Source of the DNA: Candidatus Cloacimonadales bacterium | GTDB taxonomy: Bacteria > Cloacimonadota > Cloacimonadia > Cloacimonadales > JAFGVF01 | Direction of reading: 5' to 3' | Assembly: GCA_963662585.1 (NCBI GenBank) | Contig: OY759729.1 | Span: 1,859,866-1,923,865 of the forward strand | Length of the DNA stretch: 64,000 bases | In this document: positions 3 through 25,880 of the stretch, one piece after another | Layout of the letters: each line of letters opens with the position of its first letter | Numbering within the stretch: the stretch's first letter is position 1 | Program-made: the position numbers and the translations under genes | Notes under the pieces: generated by a model | Databases searched by the model: none | Told to the model about the DNA's origin: nothing | What the model saw: only the letters and a program-made list of their open reading frames with translations

Positions 3-635
3 ATCAACTTGTTAAAGGAAGTTCCTGTAACAAAATTTGATGAGACAGTAGAAATTCATATGAATCTTGGTGTCGATCCTAGAAAAGCTGATCAGCAAAT
101 TAGAAGCTCACTTGTTCTTCCTCATGGAACTGGAAAACAAGTAAGAGTTTTAGTTTTTGCTGAAGGAGAAAAAGCAGACCAAGCTAAAGCAGCTGGTGCA
201 GAATTCGTTGGTGTCGATGAATATATTGACAAAATAACCAAAGATAGCTGGATGGAATTTGATACTGTGATAGCTACTCCAAATTTAATGGGTAAAATTG
301 GTAGATTAGGTAGAGTTCTCGGACCAAGAGGTCTTATGCCTAACCCTAAAGTTGGAACCGTTACAATGGATGTAGAAACAGCAGTAAGAGAAGCAAAGTC
401 CGGTAAAGTCGTATATAGGGTTGATAAATTTTCAAACATACATGTTCCTGCAGGCAAATTAAGTTTTGAAATGGGTAACATTAAAGAAAATTTAATCACA
501 ATTATTGCAGCAATTTTGAAAGATAGACCTTCAACAGTGAAAGGAACATTTATCAAAAGCATGACATTGACCTCAACCATGGGACCAGGTGTTAAACTTG
601 ATGTTGCAGGTGTAACCTTAGAAGCTAAATCATAG
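3..635 (+). CDS. rplA: 50S ribosomal protein L1, 5' end cut by window edge
   Basis: The frame is open from base 3. The product carries L1-like strings ([37 protein letters not shown]). About 25-30 N-terminal residues are missing relative to E. coli L1. It is followed by rplJ-rplL-rpoBC. Confidence 0.95.
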
Positions 636-644
636 GAGAGGAAA

Positions 645-1154
645 ATGGTACAACCTTATAAAAAGAATTTAGTAAGTGAAATTAAAGAGCGACTTGACAG
701 TGCTAAAGCGATAGTCTTAGTAGATTATAAGGGAATTAATATTGAAGAAGTAGATCAACTTCGCAACAGATTTAGAAATAATGATGTTGATTATTTTGTT
801 CAGAAAAACACATTAGTTAAGATAGCACTTAATGAATTAGGAATCAAAGAATTAGATTCTTATTTAAAAGGACCAACCGGTGTAGCTGTCTGTAAAAGTG
901 ATGAAGTTTCTGCAGCAAGAGAAATGGCAACTTTCGTTAAAGAAGTTATGGAAGATAAGCCATTTCCAACATTCAAAGCTGGATTAGTTGATGGAGTATT
1001 ATATCTGAACGAAGATCTTAGTAAACTTTCTAAAATACCGTCTAGAGATGTATTGTTGGCTAAAATGTTTGGTAGCATGAAAGCCCCAATTTCAAGCTTC
1101 GTACGCTTAATTGATGCGATAGCTAAAAAAGACGAAGAAGCAAAAGCTGAATAA
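645..1154 (+). CDS. rplJ: 50S ribosomal protein L10
   Basis: 169-aa product with an L10-like N-terminus ([24 protein letters not shown]). AGGAGAGG RBS just upstream. Conserved position between rplA and rplL. Confidence 0.93.
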
Positions 1155-1735: not shown

Positions 1736-4700
1736 TTGAAAAAGTTCAAAAGTTATTCCAGAATATCCAAGAAATTTATCGAGTTGGGAATACCTCAAGT
1801 AGAAGTACCAAATCTTCTATCTATGCAGGTTGATTCTTTTGAAGATTTTATCCAAAAAGATGTTCATCCTCAACAGCGAAAGAATTTCGGATTACAAGCT
1901 GTTTTTGAGAATTTATTTCCCATAACAGACCCTAAAGAAAACTACGAGCTCGAATTTGTAGAATACCGAATCTTAAAAGAAAAATATTCAATTGATGAAT
2001 GTATAGAAAGAAATTTATCGTACCAAGTTCCCTTAAAAATTAAATTAAGATTAAAAGTCTATGAAGTTGAAGAAGATGAAAATTTTGATATCATAGTAGA
2101 GAGTGTCGGTAGTAATGTAAATGATGTAAAGCAGTTTTTGATAACAGGTTTGAATTGGGATGAAGTTTCAGCTACTAATATACTGGAAGCAGTAGAGACC
2201 AATGAAGATACAAACAGGATTATAAACTCTTGTGATGAAGCTGAAGATGCAAAACAAATTCTAAACACCTTAAAAACTTTCGGAGTAACAGGAAGAATCC
2301 AAAAGAGGATTGATAAAACAAGAACTCTGAGAGATATAATGGAACAAGAAGTTTTCTTAGGTGATATTCCTTTGATTACAGAGCAAGGTACTTTTGTAAT
2401 TAACGGAGCTGAAAGAGTTATTATATCACAATTACAACGCTCACCAGGTGTATATTTCTCAGAAGAGAAACACCCTAGTGGCAAGATGTTAATATCATCA
2501 AAAATAATTCCATATAATGGAAGCTGGTTGGAATTCCATATCGACATACATGATGTTGTTTATGTAAATATTGATAAAAGAAGAAAACTACCAGTATCAA
2601 TTCTCTTAAGATCTGTTGGCTATATTCCAGAAAACTATACTGAAATTCCGGAAGCAAGAGAGACCTTACGCCTTTCAGACGAGAAAGGAAATGTTTCTTT
2701 AAAAGCCAAAAACAGTTATTCTTACTTTGATATATATGACCCTCGTGAAGGTCATGAAGATAAACTGATAGTTTCAGCTAAAACTAAACTTAATAATGAA
2801 TTAGTAGAAGAATTATTAAGTGTGGGTATAATTGAGATTGATACTATTAGTAATAAGTACATATCTACAGACAGAGTTCTTAGAGATGTATTTTATGACA
2901 TCGAAGAGATGCCATTAGACAAAGCAGATAAGAGATTTACTGCTTATGAGATAATAGGTTCAGATGGTGTTTTACTTGCTGAAGCTAATACTCAGATTGA
3001 TAAAGATCTGATTACTGAGCTTACAGAAAAAGGTATTAAAACTGTTAAAGTAGTCTCTGAAGACAGTGACTTTAATCGTAAGATACTTGAAAAAACACTA
3101 TTAAAAGATCCTTCAAGGAATCAAGAAGAAGCTGCTCAAAAAATATATAGCTTAGTGAGACCTGGTGAAGATGAAGTTCCTATTGAAAATGCAATGGATC
3201 TAATTGATAAAATGTTCTTCAATTCTAAAAGATATAATCTTGGTAATGTTGGACGCCATAAGTTAAATGCTAAACTAGATTTTGAGCATGATTATGGTAC
3301 AAATGTCTTAACACAAAGAGATTTTACTGAAATTATTCAGTATATGATCAGTATCTTTAAAGACGAAAAAGATGTAGATGATATAGATCACCTTGCTAAC
3401 AGAAGAGTTAGAACAGTTGGTGAATTGTTAGAAGAACAATATAAAACAGGTCTTTCAATGATCGCAAGAATCGCCTTAGAAAGAATGGCTATAGCGAATC
3501 CTGATGAAGTTACAGTGCATGATTTAATTAATAGTAATGCTCTTATAACTGTCATTGATTCTTTCTTCTTAACAGGTCAGTTGTCGCAGTTCATGGACCA
3601 AACAAACCCACTTTCAGCCCTAACACACAAGAGAAGATTGTCTGCTTTAGGACCTGGTGGTTTAGCTCGTGATAGAGCAGGATTCGAAGTTCGTGATATT
3701 CATTATTCACATTATGGAAGAATCTGTCCTATCGAAACACCTGAAGGCCCAAGTATTGGACTTTTAAACTCACCTGCGATTTATTCTCGCATTAATGAGT
3801 TTGGTTTCTTAGAAACACCTTATATTAAGGTTGAAAATGGTGTGATTACGAGTAGAGTTGATTATTTAGATGCTCATGAAGAGGATAAATATATCATAGC
3901 TCAACATGTAAATATTGATGATAATTTAGTAATTACAGATAAATATGTATTTTGTCGTGAAAAAGATGAGTATGTCAATGTTACTCCTGAACAGATAGAT
4001 TACATTGATGTATCACCTCAACAAGTTGTATCAGTATCAGCAGCTCTAGTTCCTTTCTTGGAACATGATGATGCTAACCGTGCTTTGATGGGATCTAACA
4101 TGCAGAGACAGTCTGTGCCGTTATTGAATCCTCAAACTCCTATTATTGGTACAGGAATTGAGAAAATAGTAGCTCGTGAATCTGGTGCTGTTGTCTTGGC
4201 TCAATATGATGGGGAAGTTACTAGTGTGACTTCTGAATATATTGACATAAAGCCTGATTCAACAACAGATAATATTGATTTAATTGGAGATGAAAGAATT
4301 TATCTCAAGAAATATGTTAGATCAAACCAAGATACTTGTATTAACCAACGCCCAATCGTTAGTATTGGAGATAAGGTTAAAAAAGGACAACCAATATCTG
4401 ACGGACCTGGTGTCGAAGGCGATAGATTAGCCTTGGGTACAAATATGGTAGTTGCATTCATGCCTTGGTATGGATTCAACTATGAAGATGCTATTATTTT
4501 GAGTGAACATGTAGCTCGAAAAGATACACTTACTTCTATCTATATTGAAGAGTTAGAAGTTTTAGTTAGAGATTTAAAAAATGGTAAAGAAGAGTTAGCA
4601 AGTGATATTCCTAATGTCCCTGTTAATTCTTTAAGAAACTTAGATAAATCAGGTATTATCCGAGTTGGTTCAGTTATTACAGCAGGGGATATCATAGTTG

Positions 4701-11164: not shown

Positions 11165-11635
11165 ATGCCAAGAAAACGCAAAGCCATAGAAAGAACAGTA
11201 TTACCTGATCCAAAATATAATGATGTAATACTTAGTAAGTTCATCAACGGTGTTATGTCACATGGAAAGAAATCCATTGCAGAACAGATTGTTTATGGAG
11301 CATTTGAAATTATCGAAGCTAAATTGAAAAAAGATCCTCTAGAGGTATTTAGAGAAGCTTTAACAAACGCAAGACCTCTTGTAAAAGTTACTTCTCGTCG
11401 TGTTGGTGGTGCTAACTACCAAGTACCTGAAGAAGTTTCTGAAAAAGCAGGAAGAGCTATTGCTTTCAGATGGATTATCTCAGTTGCTCGTGGTCGTAAT
11501 GAGAAAAACATGAGAGATAAATTAGCTGCAGAGTTAATGGCTATCTATAAAAAAGAGGGTTCTACTATCAAGAAAAGAGAAGATACCCACAAAATGGCTG
11601 AAGCTAACAAAGCTTTTGCTCACTTAAGATTCTAA
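11165..11635 (+). CDS. rpsG: 30S ribosomal protein S7
   Basis: MPRKRKAIERTVLPDPKY, VGGANYQVP and a C-terminal AFAHLRF. Lies immediately after rpsL. Confidence 0.97.
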   Translation: MPRKRKAIERTVLPDPKYNDVILSKFINGVMSHGKKSIAEQIVYGAFEIIEAKLKKDPLEVFREALTNARPLVKVTSRRVGGANYQVPEEVSEKAGRAIAFRWIISVARGRNEKNMRDKLAAELMAIYKKEGSTIKKREDTHKMAEANKAFAHLRF

Positions 11636-11933: not shown

Positions 11934-12347
11934 ATGGCTAAAATAGAAGCAATTGACTTCAAGAGAAGACGAGCTATTCCTACTAAGTACAAAACCCTCT
12001 TAGTTCTATTCTGCATAATAGGAATACTAATTCACTCATACTGGAATAAAAAAAGAGTTGAAAGCTTAGTTGTTGATAATGAGACTATTATGTTTGAAGA
12101 GATTAATATGCAATCAGTAATAATAAATTTTGCTATTTATAATACTACTCAAATTGAAAAATCCGAAAAAGTAAAAATCGAGATTGTTGACCAAAATAAC
12201 TATCTTGTAACTTCGACAATAAGATATCTGGAATTTCATAGGGGACAGAATTTATTCACTGAACAGATAAAATTTAAAAGAAGATTCCCTGATATAGAAA
12301 AGCGAAGTTTAAGAGCTATAATTTCTATTCATCCTCGTCGATTATGA
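11934..12347 (+). CDS. Hypothetical membrane-anchored protein (single N-terminal TM helix)
   Basis: 137-aa ORF with AGGAG upstream. Hydrophobic segment TLLVLFCIIGILIHSYW followed by a beta-rich soluble part. I recognise no family. Confidence 0.55.
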   Translation: MAKIEAIDFKRRRAIPTKYKTLLVLFCIIGILIHSYWNKKRVESLVVDNETIMFEEINMQSVIINFAIYNTTQIEKSEKVKIEIVDQNNYLVTSTIRYLEFHRGQNLFTEQIKFKRRFPDIEKRSLRAIISIHPRRL

Positions 12348-23714: not shown

Positions 23715-25880
23715 TTGTTAAATGAACTAAATAAAGAGCAACAGGAAGTAGTTGCAACAACAGAAGGGGCGGTATTAGTATTAGCTGGGGCTGGTAGTGG
23801 AAAGACTAGAACTATCATTTATCGGACAGCTTACTTAATCAACCAGAAAGGTGTGGATCCTTTCAATATCCTTATCGTCACTTTTACTAATAAAGCTTCT
23901 AGTGAGCTTAGGGAAAGGCTTCTTACTTATTTTGGAATAAATCCTTCTCGCTTATGGGTTGGGACTTTTCATTCTATTTGTTTGAGGATTCTAAGAAGTG
24001 AATACAAATTTACTAAGTTTAATTCTAATTTTACTATCTATGATAGTGATGACCAGAAGGCACTTCTCAAGAAGGTTTATAAACGATTGGGGATAGCTAA
24101 AGAGAACTTTCCACTTCCTCAAATGAAGGCTTCTATTAGCAAGCGAAAGAATGAGTTTTTGCTACCTGAAGATTTACAGTTTTTAAAAGATGAAGGTTTT
24201 TCTAATAGGATATATTTACAAGTTTACACTGAATATCAGAAAGAGTTAGTTAATAACAATTGCATGGATTTTGATGATATAATGGTTTATACCTTGAAGC
24301 TTTTTCATGAACATAAAGAGGTCTTACAAAGGTATCAAGAGATTTTCAAGTTCGTTATGATTGATGAATACCAAGATACAAATGTGATTCAGTATAAATT
24401 AACTTCGCTTTTAGCAGAACCAGATAATAATATTTGTGTGGTGGGTGATGATGATCAAGCTATATATTCTTGGCGTGGTGCAGATATTACTAATATCCTT
24501 AAATTTGATAAAATACACAAAGAAACTGCTGTTATTAGATTAGAACAAAATTATAGGTCTAGTCGACAAATCTTAGAGATTGCTAATCAGTTAATCAGTA
24601 ACAATGAAGAGAGACATCCTAAGAAGCTAAGAACAGAGATAGAATCTGTTCAACAGCCAGTTATGAAGAGATTAGAGACTGATGTTGATGAAGCAAGATA
24701 CATTGTAGAAGAAATTCAGAATATTCAGCAGGAATATGGATTAAGATTAAATGATATTGCTGTACTCTATCGAACTAATTCGCAATCTAGACTCTTAGAA
24801 ACAGAACTGATCAAGCAAAATCTTCCCTATAAAATCGTCGGGGGTATAAATTTCTACCAACGCAAAGAAATTAAGGATATTCTTTCTTATTTAAAATGTA
24901 TTATTAATCCTGCTGATAACGAGAGTTTTCAACGCATAATTAATAGTCCAACAAGGGGAATAGGCAAGACTACGATAAATGTTATTAGTAACTATGCTAT
25001 TGATCATAGTTTATCTTTAAGTGATGCGATAATGCATGTAGATAAGATAGATTCTTTATCTGCTAGAGCTAAAACTGCTGTTGGTAAGTTTGCTAAACTT
25101 CTGAAGAAATGGCGAGATAAAGCTAATTATATTAACTGTTTTGAAATAACTAATTTAGTGATTTCGGATATAGATATTGTTGCACTTCTCTCAAAATCAG
25201 ATGACCCTAAGCTCAATTCTCAAGCAGAGAATATTAAAGAGTTTATTAGCTCTACTTCACAATTTAGAGAAGAGTTTCTGCAGAATAATGATGTAGAACC
25301 TTATTTAGAAGATTTCCTTAATTCTGTTCAGTTACTAACCGATTTAGATAGATTTGATCGTGATTCAGATTCTGTAAATCTATTAACTATTCATAATGCT
25401 AAAGGTTTAGAATTTCAAGCAGTCTTTGTTGCAGGGATTGAAGAGGGGTTATTACCTCACAATCGTTCAATTTTTGAAGACAAGGGTATTGAAGAGGAGA
25501 GAAGATTATTATATGTTGCTATTACTCGAGCCAAAGAGTATCTTTATTTAACTTATGCTAATTATAGAAGAATTAATGGTTTAAATGATGCATCTGCACC
25601 AAGTAGGTTCTTATCAGAGATTGGAACAAAGACTACTAATAAGAGTAGTTTTGTTACTTATCCTCAAGCACCTAAAAGAAAAAGTTTGGCAGCAGTAAAG
25701 AAACCGAATAAAATATTGAATGACAGTAAGTTTAGGCCTGGTGATAAAGTGCACCATGAAATCTTTGGGAAGGGCATGGTCATTTCTTCTAATGGAGAGG
25801 GTGATAGTATGATTTTAACCATATCCTTCACAACAGGTCTGCTAAAAAAGATAAATGTTAAATATATTGAACTCGTTTAA
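23715..25880 (+). CDS. pcrA: ATP-dependent DNA helicase, UvrD/PcrA family
   Basis: Walker A AGAGSGKT plus DEYQDTN, QNYRSS, TIHNAKGLEF and VAITRAK motifs. TTG start. Confidence 0.92.
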   Translation: MLNELNKEQQEVVATTEGAVLVLAGAGSGKTRTIIYRTAYLINQKGVDPFNILIVTFTNKASSELRERLLTYFGINPSRLWVGTFHSICLRILRSEYKFTKFNSNFTIYDSDDQKALLKKVYKRLGIAKENFPLPQMKASISKRKNEFLLPEDLQFLKDEGFSNRIYLQVYTEYQKELVNNNCMDFDDIMVYTLKLFHEHKEVLQRYQEIFKFVMIDEYQDTNVIQYKLTSLLAEPDNNICVVGDDDQAIYSWRGADITNILKFDKIHKETAVIRLEQNYRSSRQILEIANQLISNNEERHPKKLRTEIESVQQPVMKRLETDVDEARYIVEEIQNIQQEYGLRLNDIAVLYRTNSQSRLLETELIKQNLPYKIVGGINFYQRKEIKDILSYLKCIINPADNESFQRIINSPTRGIGKTTINVISNYAIDHSLSLSDAIMHVDKIDSLSARAKTAVGKFAKLLKKWRDKANYINCFEITNLVISDIDIVALLSKSDDPKLNSQAENIKEFISSTSQFREEFLQNNDVEPYLEDFLNSVQLLTDLDRFDRDSDSVNLLTIHNAKGLEFQAVFVAGIEEGLLPHNRSIFEDKGIEEERRLLYVAITRAKEYLYLTYANYRRINGLNDASAPSRFLSEIGTKTTNKSSFVTYPQAPKRKSLAAVKKPNKILNDSKFRPGDKVHHEIFGKGMVISSNGEGDSMILTISFTTGLLKKINVKYIELV

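Follow-up and report, generated by a model that had tools for sequence, protein, structure and literature searches.

This study concerns a 64,000-nucleotide stretch (the window) of contig OY759729.1 from Candidatus Cloacimonadales bacterium, in which the beta subunit of RNA polymerase (RNAP), encoded by rpoB, carries an additional segment of 79 residues near its N-terminus. The segment is a genuine, selected part of RpoB in one narrow clade. The overall explanation that we favor, by a modest degree, is that a ClpS-like domain derived from the C-terminal domain (CTD) of ribosomal protein L7/L12 was acquired in a loop of the beta1 domain, where it would likely form a docking or steric module. 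About 540 nt separate the insertion point from the end of the L7/L12 gene, rplL, which lies upstream (Table 1).

A clade-specific segment in RpoB

The N-terminus of the window RpoB was aligned with MAFFT to those of Escherichia coli RpoB (NC_000913.3) and two other Cloacimonadota RpoBs. Residues 116–194 had no counterpart in any of the three, and the flanks of the segment aligned cleanly (window ...LRLKVYE / DIMEQEVFLGDIPLIT, E. coli ...LRLVIYE / ...). The match to the Pfam protrusion family PF04563 is likewise broken into two stretches at residue ~117. In 16 further Cloacimonadota RpoB N-termini, only 9–15 residues are found at this point. An earlier reading of the DNA, made from the sequence alone (the original prediction), had noticed extra residues relative to E. 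coli RpoB and an L7/L12 gene immediately upstream of rpoB. Both observations held, the latter with the two Pfam domains of L12, and the positions it gave for the L12-like stretch (2081–2305, residues 116–190) coincide with the part of the insertion that is predicted to fold.

The insertion was found in seven Cloacimonadales genomes that represent GTDB species and include closed chromosomes, in three metagenome contigs and in two protein clusters. The closest public genomes are metagenome-assembled genomes (MAGs) of Candidatus Cloacimonadales, with 99% identity to OY829950.1. Identity inside the insertion was 68–99% among the carriers. A metagenome scan yielded three further close relatives only, which did not deepen the profile.

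Pairwise comparisons by the Nei-Gojobori method gave ratios of non-synonymous to synonymous substitution (dN/dS) of 0.015–0.17 in the insertion and 0.016–0.058 in the flanking RpoB. The C-terminal third (AEDAKQILNTLKTFGV.GRIQKRID) was invariant among the carriers, and the basic return linker KRIDKTRTLR was unchanged in the alignments of all 11 insertion-bearing sequences. The base composition is native: the GC content is 0.333 in the insertion and 0.341 in the rest of rpoB, and that of third codon positions (GC3) matches as well. Because it recurs in frame, has a low dN/dS and an invariant last third, and matches its host gene in GC and GC3, the insertion is a genuine, clade-specific part of RpoB under purifying selection.

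The idea that it is an artefact, through chimeric assembly, a frameshift or a wrongly called open reading frame (ORF), is already refuted and keeps practically no probability. Seven species genomes that were assembled independently, several to closed chromosomes, have the segment in frame, as do contigs of other projects; synonymous changes far exceed non-synonymous ones, and the composition is that of the host gene. Mapping by RpoB alignment across taxa, a check suggested with the original prediction, limited the insertion to one Cloacimonadales clade of roughly genus or family level. It is a recent feature, and sister lineages are without it.

The called start of rpoB bears on the residue numbers used here. 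Both rpoB and rplA were called from a TTG start codon in the ORF list. Homologous RpoBs start with M/L-RK-[IV]-KSYSRIS at the position equal to the called rpoB start, and from these sequences our residue numbering is probably right.

A ClpS-like fold is predicted

The structure of the insertion was predicted twice with AlphaFold2 without templates, from input alignments of only three near-identical sequences. A 97-residue construct with flanks reached a mean predicted local distance difference test (pLDDT) score of 71.4. A trimmed construct of 82 residues, headed by an 83%-identical variant (P0002), reached 86.4 with a predicted template modeling (pTM) score of 0.70, and four of its five models scored at least 79. 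In both predictions, the order of elements was strand-helix-helix-strand-helix-strand.

The models were searched with Foldseek against 350,542 PDB chains. ClpS or the L7/L12 CTD exclusively filled ranks 1–43 for the 97-residue model and ranks 1–40 for the 82-residue model; the first other fold, a sub-domain of PBP2a, came below those ranks. The CTD of E. coli L7/L12 (1ctf) was superposed over 73 columns with a template modeling (TM) score, normalized to the target, of 0.83–0.86, a root-mean-square deviation (rmsd) of 1.7–2.1 Å and a Foldseek probability of 1.00. The target-normalized TM score was 0.83 for Deinococcus radiodurans L7 (2zjq chain 5). Across the L7/L12 CTD structures compared (PF00542; 1ctf, 1dd3, 2zjq chain 5), the predicted fold covered the whole CTD with TM scores of 0.83–0.86 and an rmsd of 1.7–2.8 Å.

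On these models, the inserted domain very probably has a ClpS-like fold, a superfamily in which, as we understand it, SCOP places both ClpS and the L12 CTD. The assignment is supported because the two AlphaFold2 runs gave concordant results, which also fit a hypothesis framed before any structure was available. Since the sequence resemblance to L12, described below, is above chance yet not significant, the predicted structure is the convincing part of the case.

Ancestry of the inserted domain

A hidden Markov model (HMM) of the insertion was compared with 177,635 distinct PDB sequences. Thermotoga maritima L12 came first with an E-value of 0.012, or 0.0083 when the profile was trimmed, and the following matches started at E-values of 0.56–1.0. 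The match to T. maritima L12 covers 65 residues in register (EExxxFD[VI][VI], S.G.N, ITGL, E-A, EAE). Compared more widely with L7/L12 CTDs, the insertion shares the EExxxFD[VI]I start, the S.G turn, ITGL, E82-A83 and the DEAE start of helix 3.

When the insertion profile was run against all six-frame ORFs of the window, its own L12 was the best non-self match (7.2 bits, P 3.5e-4). All 120 Cloacimonadota L12s scored between 4 and 14.6 bits with this profile, and E. coli ClpS scored 0 bits. Alignment of the insertion with the L12 CTD by hhalign ran end to end over 70 columns with 26% identity (P 9e-4 global, 3.6e-3 local). The Smith-Waterman score with the window's own L12 was 42, compared with a shuffle mean of 25 ± 4.6 (p = 0.006 local, 0.0014 semi-global), and the end-to-end identity of insertion and L12 was 24%.

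Several results weigh against our explanation. The structure predictions drew on the very small alignments mentioned above, the Foldseek E-values were 3e-3 to 1e-2 with none below 1e-3, and ClpS did as well as L12, taking rank 1 with the 97-residue model and rank 2 with the 82-residue model. The hhalign probability for L12 was 3.7–9%, and BLASTP between the insertion and its own L12 gave a non-significant E-value of 0.38. Neither PF00542 nor PF02617 matched the window sequence or any of nine variants, even at E ≤ 10. In the reverse test, a home-made HMM of the L12 CTD ranked RpoB ninth among the window ORFs (2.3 bits, not significant). A phmmer search of the insertion against 1.84 billion representatives returned two long repeat proteins (P0121 and P0122) and no L12. 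At the DNA level, similarity between the insertion and rplL was not significant, the only match being 13 nt long, where both sequences have the DEAE codons (p ~0.05). Nor does the L12 of the clade score best among the L12s (7 bits for it, 19 for that of T. maritima), so no specific tie to the neighboring gene emerges.

Some matches and searches were set aside. The two repeat proteins, of 1530 aa (P0121) and 1287 aa (P0122), were rejected as homologues: each repeat scored at most 10 bits when rescored locally, and their E-values are the sum of 11–14 weak matches to a short helix-turn motif (E-E-x-K-x-[IL]-[IL]-N-T-L-K-x-F/L-G-[IV]-T). In P0122, helical repeats of ~34 aa (SSRKEEEIKSIINTLKxLGITEG...) mimic the stretch EAEDAKQILNTLKTFGVTG of the insertion. 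Pfam matches to DHQS and Synapsin_C (E ≤ 1 / ≤ 10) were noise, as was everything returned by a single-sequence phmmer search of the PDB (ThiG, synapsin). A word-indexed search with an alignment of nine insertion sequences returned nothing; it missed even the carriers P0001 and P0002, and we discounted this null result as insensitivity.

Given such marginal statistics, the silence of Pfam and the lack of a homologue outside the clade, one could suppose an unrelated or de novo origin, with convergence on a common small alpha/beta topology and a resemblance to L12 made up of chance and secondary-structure periodicity. We regard this as unlikely. The best PDB sequence match belongs to the family that was the candidate a priori, and it is in register; an independent structure prediction gave the same fold, with no other among ~40 top matches; and the similarity spans the L12 CTD from its first residue (EExxxFD[VI]I) to its last strand.

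A second possibility is that the fold is indeed ClpS-like, with the domain coming from ClpS or from an unsampled member of the superfamily and the adjacency of rplL being a coincidence. ClpS chains score like L12 CTDs in Foldseek, and a short stretch of the two looks alike (NWDEVSATNILEAV and SYDVERATQLMLAV). The sequence comparisons make this origin rather improbable. E. coli ClpS received 0 bits from the insertion profile, whereas every L12 tested received 4–19 bits, and no ClpS reached E ≤ 10 in the searches of PDB sequences. The length of the domain and both of its ends agree exactly with the L12 CTD.

The residues of ClpS, the N-degron adaptor of ClpAP (PF02617; 2w9r, 3o2h, 9b1p), were also compared with the insertion. 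We take N34, D35, D36 and H66 of the E. coli protein to form its N-degron pocket. The residue aligned with H66 by HMMER is Glu, which may also argue against a ClpS origin, and N34/D35/D36 correspond to S/V/G in an alignment made by eye and anchored on secondary structure only. The insertion also differs from ClpS in having no N-terminal extension, while the two are alike in fold class.

Homology of the insertion to L12 is, in our judgment, likely, on sequence evidence that is only marginal. The motifs listed in the original prediction (FD[VI]I..S.G, IT.L, DEAE) were recovered in register, and the beta-alpha-alpha-beta-alpha-beta order it had proposed was returned by AlphaFold2 and Foldseek, with a TM score of 0.86 to 1ctf. 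Its broader claim of a resemblance to the L12 CTD stood for the end-to-end similarity, which is above chance, and for the predicted fold; it did not stand in the pairwise and Pfam sequence tests, which were not significant. The same division appears between the searches that it had named as decisive, with ClpS or L12 in the top ~40 structure matches and little from the profiles (Pfam silent, hhalign 4–9%).

The most likely source of the domain would be a copy of the L7/L12 CTD. We propose that a narrow Cloacimonadales lineage gained an entire small alpha/beta domain of the ClpS-like type in a flexible loop between strands 3 and 4 of RpoB beta1, and that this may have happened when the 3' half of rplL was duplicated locally into rpoB and then diverged rapidly. 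The correspondence of the insertion with the L12 CTD is complete, extending from the acidic lead-in (EE..FD) through the last strand. The origin would be a duplication and not a relocation, because the genome keeps an intact, full-length rplL. Inspection of the junction sequences by eye, without a repeat search, showed no repeats flanking the insertion. The adjacent rplL is a plausible donor, and the case for it is circumstantial.

Position on beta1 and possible role

The insertion lies in the loop between strands 3 and 4 of beta1 (residues ~106–116 in E. coli), within the N-terminal segment of beta-uD1. Past the insertion, I201-M202-E203 of the window RpoB align with I117-K118-E119 of E. coli and I108-K109-E110 of Thermus aquaticus (Taq). 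This surface of beta1 binds the repair factor Mfd, and presumably CarD/CdnL dock at the same place.

In the crystal structure of the RNAP-interacting domain (RID) of Thermus thermophilus (Tth) Mfd with Taq beta1, the edge strand I108-K109-E110 pairs with the Tudor-like RID in an intermolecular beta-sheet (PMC3001067). The loop between strands 3 and 4 is flexible and takes up a register shift when the RID binds, and the RID of Mfd and CarD are grouped in one protein family, Pfam PF02559 (PMC3001067). Our assignment of strand 3 follows the description of Taq beta1, in which L98 and L100 belong to this strand (PMC3001067).

The insertion is strongly acidic, with an isoelectric point (pI) of 4.05, 16 Asp and Glu against 5 Lys and Arg, and a net charge of about -11. 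As we envisage it, the inserted domain would sit as an acidic, solvent-exposed knob at the tip of an extended beta-hairpin, a few residues from I201-M202-E203, and would return to strand 4 through the basic linker. There it would act as a protein-protein interaction or steric module that could either adjust how readily RID-type factors reach their site or serve as a surface for a clade-specific partner. Catalysis would stay untouched, as with other lineage-specific RNAP inserts. A surface docking or steric role near the RID site is, by inference, the most likely one. The position beside the docking strand of Mfd raises the question of whether transcription-coupled repair or CarD-type control of initiation is altered in this clade.

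The domain might instead have kept the function of the ribosomal stalk, recruiting EF-G, EF-Tu or IF2 or linking RNAP physically to the translation machinery or the ribosome. If so, RNAP of this clade would bear its own L12-like "arm" tying transcription to translation factors or ribosomes. In favor of this, the predicted fold and the likely ancestry point to the L12 CTD, and purifying selection shows that the domain is in use. The factor-binding face is where the two part. In E. coli L12, we take this face to comprise K65, V66, I69, K70, R73, L80, K81, E82 and K84 of helices 4/5. Aligned to it, the insertion has K65V, V66N, I69K, K70Q, a gap at R73, L80W, K81D and K84T, and E82 alone is kept; the losses include all five basic residues of the face (K65, K70, R73, K81 and K84). 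With a pI of 4.05 and 5 Lys and Arg, the domain also exceeds the L12 CTD (pI 4.97, 12 Lys and Arg) in acidity.

Because the five basic residues of the factor-binding face are all lost, canonical GTPase recruitment of the L12 type is unlikely, as judged from the alignment. We consider it very improbable that the grafted domain retains stalk function, and give the same low credence to the combined picture in which rpoB received a copy of the 3' half of rplL and the grafted domain still contacts factors or ribosomes. The original prediction had spoken of a stalk-type domain grafted onto beta. This wording suits the predicted fold and the likely ancestry, and fails for the function, since the basic residues are replaced. 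The docking or steric module is the role that we retain for the L12-derived domain.

The window also encodes a PcrA/UvrD helicase with a C-terminal Tudor domain (Table 1). In Bacillus subtilis and E. coli, the Tudor domain of PcrA/UvrD binds a "TGE" hairpin motif in RpoB SI1 (PMC8318588). We looked for this helicase interaction motif (PMC8318588) in the insertion and rejected it, as the insertion has VTGRI in place of TGE. The stretch IDPDTGEVI of a related Cloacimonadota RpoB (P0024) is aligned with GSDGVLL in the window RpoB, and from this comparison the motif appears to be degenerate in the insertion-bearing clade.

Relation to known domains and RNAP insertions

The best PDB sequence match of the insertion is an L12, and the length of the folded part (~76 residues) is near that of L12 CTDs (~68–72). 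The differences are of context and detail. The L12 CTD is tethered by a hinge to an N-terminal domain that binds L10, whereas the insertion stands between two strands of beta1 with neither the PF16320 segment nor the hinge. Helix 1 of the insertion is two residues shorter and the loop between a2 and b2 is ~6 residues longer. The insertion fails the PF00542 model and is limited to one Cloacimonadales clade.

Lineage-specific insertions are a known kind of feature in RNAP. A 2024 survey described five sites for such domains in beta, located in uD2, uD3, uD4 and uD5, and nearly all of the domains were BEAN (BBM2) (PMC11515920). The authors inferred that insertions into RNAP ceased after early bacterial evolution and suggested that gene neighborhood influenced domain acquisition by RNAP (PMC11515920). 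They grouped the Cloacimonetes with the FCB phyla and assigned the type 4 architecture to Gracilicutes (PMC11515920); we take the Cloacimonetes / FCB to have this type 4 architecture.

Like the BEAN/BBM2 inserts (E. coli beta-i4/SI1, Firmicutes SI1, the Chloroflexi type), the L12-like insertion would fold independently within a surface loop of one of the universal RpoB domains; it is confined to a lineage, and its conservation is below that of the core. It differs from them in its predicted fold, since BEAN (CATH 3.90.105.10) consists of two antiparallel, bracket-like alpha+2beta elements. It differs as well in its location in N-terminal beta-uD1 (beta1), outside the five listed sites, and in its recent age. 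A precedent for a beta insert as a docking site is the binding of the PcrA Tudor domain (its CTD) to SI1 of beta (PMC8318588).

A domain type common to the ribosomal stalk and RNAP also has a precedent in BEAN, which is shared by RNAP and the archaeal stalk protein uL10. The authors of the survey linked this sharing to the conserved neighborhood of the genes for RNAP, NusG, uL1, uL11 and, in archaea, uL10 (PMC11515920). That case is ancient. Here the putative donor rplL and the recipient rpoB are adjacent, and the event is recent.

We found no report in the literature of an L12- or ClpS-like domain in RpoB; the 2010 insert catalogues of Lane & Darst were outside the scope of this search and may list an insert at this site in other phyla. 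That the domain is missing from the cataloged RpoB insertions, as suspected at the outset, agrees with the 2024 survey, which lists neither this site nor this fold, its domains being BEAN (BBM2) (PMC11515920). Relative to that survey, the L12-like insertion is a lineage-specific RNAP insertion with a new fold, site and age: a ClpS-like or L12-CTD fold according to prediction, the loop between strands 3 and 4 of beta1, a recent origin, and a candidate donor 540 nt upstream. If the origin from rplL is true, it would be a concrete case of domain donation from one gene to its neighbor, between the machineries of translation and transcription. In practical terms the finding carries limited weight, as the clade is uncultured and narrow.

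Other features of the window

The features named in the text are collected in Table 1.

Table 1. Genes and RpoB elements of the window discussed in the text
Feature	Position in window	Strand	Remarks
rplA	9–635		first gene of a conserved cluster in the first 12 kb
rplJ	645–1154		same cluster
rplL, ribosomal protein L7/L12, 125 aa	1166–1543	+	Pfam PF16320 (E 1.3e-18) and PF00542 (E 3.7e-30)
rplL, part coding for the CTD	about 1337 (EFDVIL...) to 1540	+	candidate donor of the inserted domain
rpoB, RNAP beta subunit, 1414 aa	1736–5980	+	ORF with all Rpb2 Pfam domains; insertion host
beta1 (protrusion) strand 3 LKIKLRLKVYEV, residues 100–111, and acidic lead-in EEDE, residues 112–115	2033–2080	+	aligns with E. 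coli LRVKLRLVIYE
Inserted segment, residues 116–194, 79 aa (NFDIIVES...GRIQKRIDK)	2081–2317	+	no counterpart in the E. coli and other Cloacimonadota RpoBs compared
Folded part of the insertion (predicted ClpS-like / L12-CTD-like), residues 116–191			b1 116–124, a1 127–139, a2 141–154, b2 160–166, a3 167–183, b3 184–191
Basic return linker KRIDKTRTLR, residues 189–199	2300–2332	+	from alignments; low pLDDT in the first AlphaFold2 model
beta1 strand 4 DIMEQEVF, residues 200–207	2333–2356	+	from alignment with E. coli RpoB
Second RpoB insertion, residues 296–375	2621–2860		beta2 / beta-i4 region
rpoC, 1581 aa	6013–10758		conserved cluster
rpsL			conserved cluster, after rpoC
rpsG	11165–11635		conserved cluster, after rpsL
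ORF, 137 aa	11934–12347		downstream of rpsG
PcrA/UvrD helicase	23715–25880	+	C-terminal Tudor domain (PF21196)

The window RpoB has a second insertion of ~80 residues, which follows LLRSVG. In the alignment it is absent from the other Cloacimonadota RpoBs. With both insertions missing from these relatives, the clade has gained at least two RpoB segments relative to them. We considered the second insertion as a tandem copy of the adjacent unit, and BLASTP gave no support for this (E = 8.7).

Downstream of the cluster, no ORF of at least 80 aa starts between rpsG and position 11934, hence fusA and tufA are not located there. The 137-aa ORF that begins at this position had no Pfam match and looks membrane-associated by eye; a Mur-ligase-like gene comes after it.

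Another RpoB N-terminus, from the Acidobacteriaceae MAG CAZGSU010000022.1 (L008, about 1950–2130), has an insertion of ~60 residues that is rich in Cys. It contains four CxxC pairs, which may form two zinc ribbons, and lies between LEFVDYAIG and LKYDVSECEERG, upstream of the site of the L12-like insertion.

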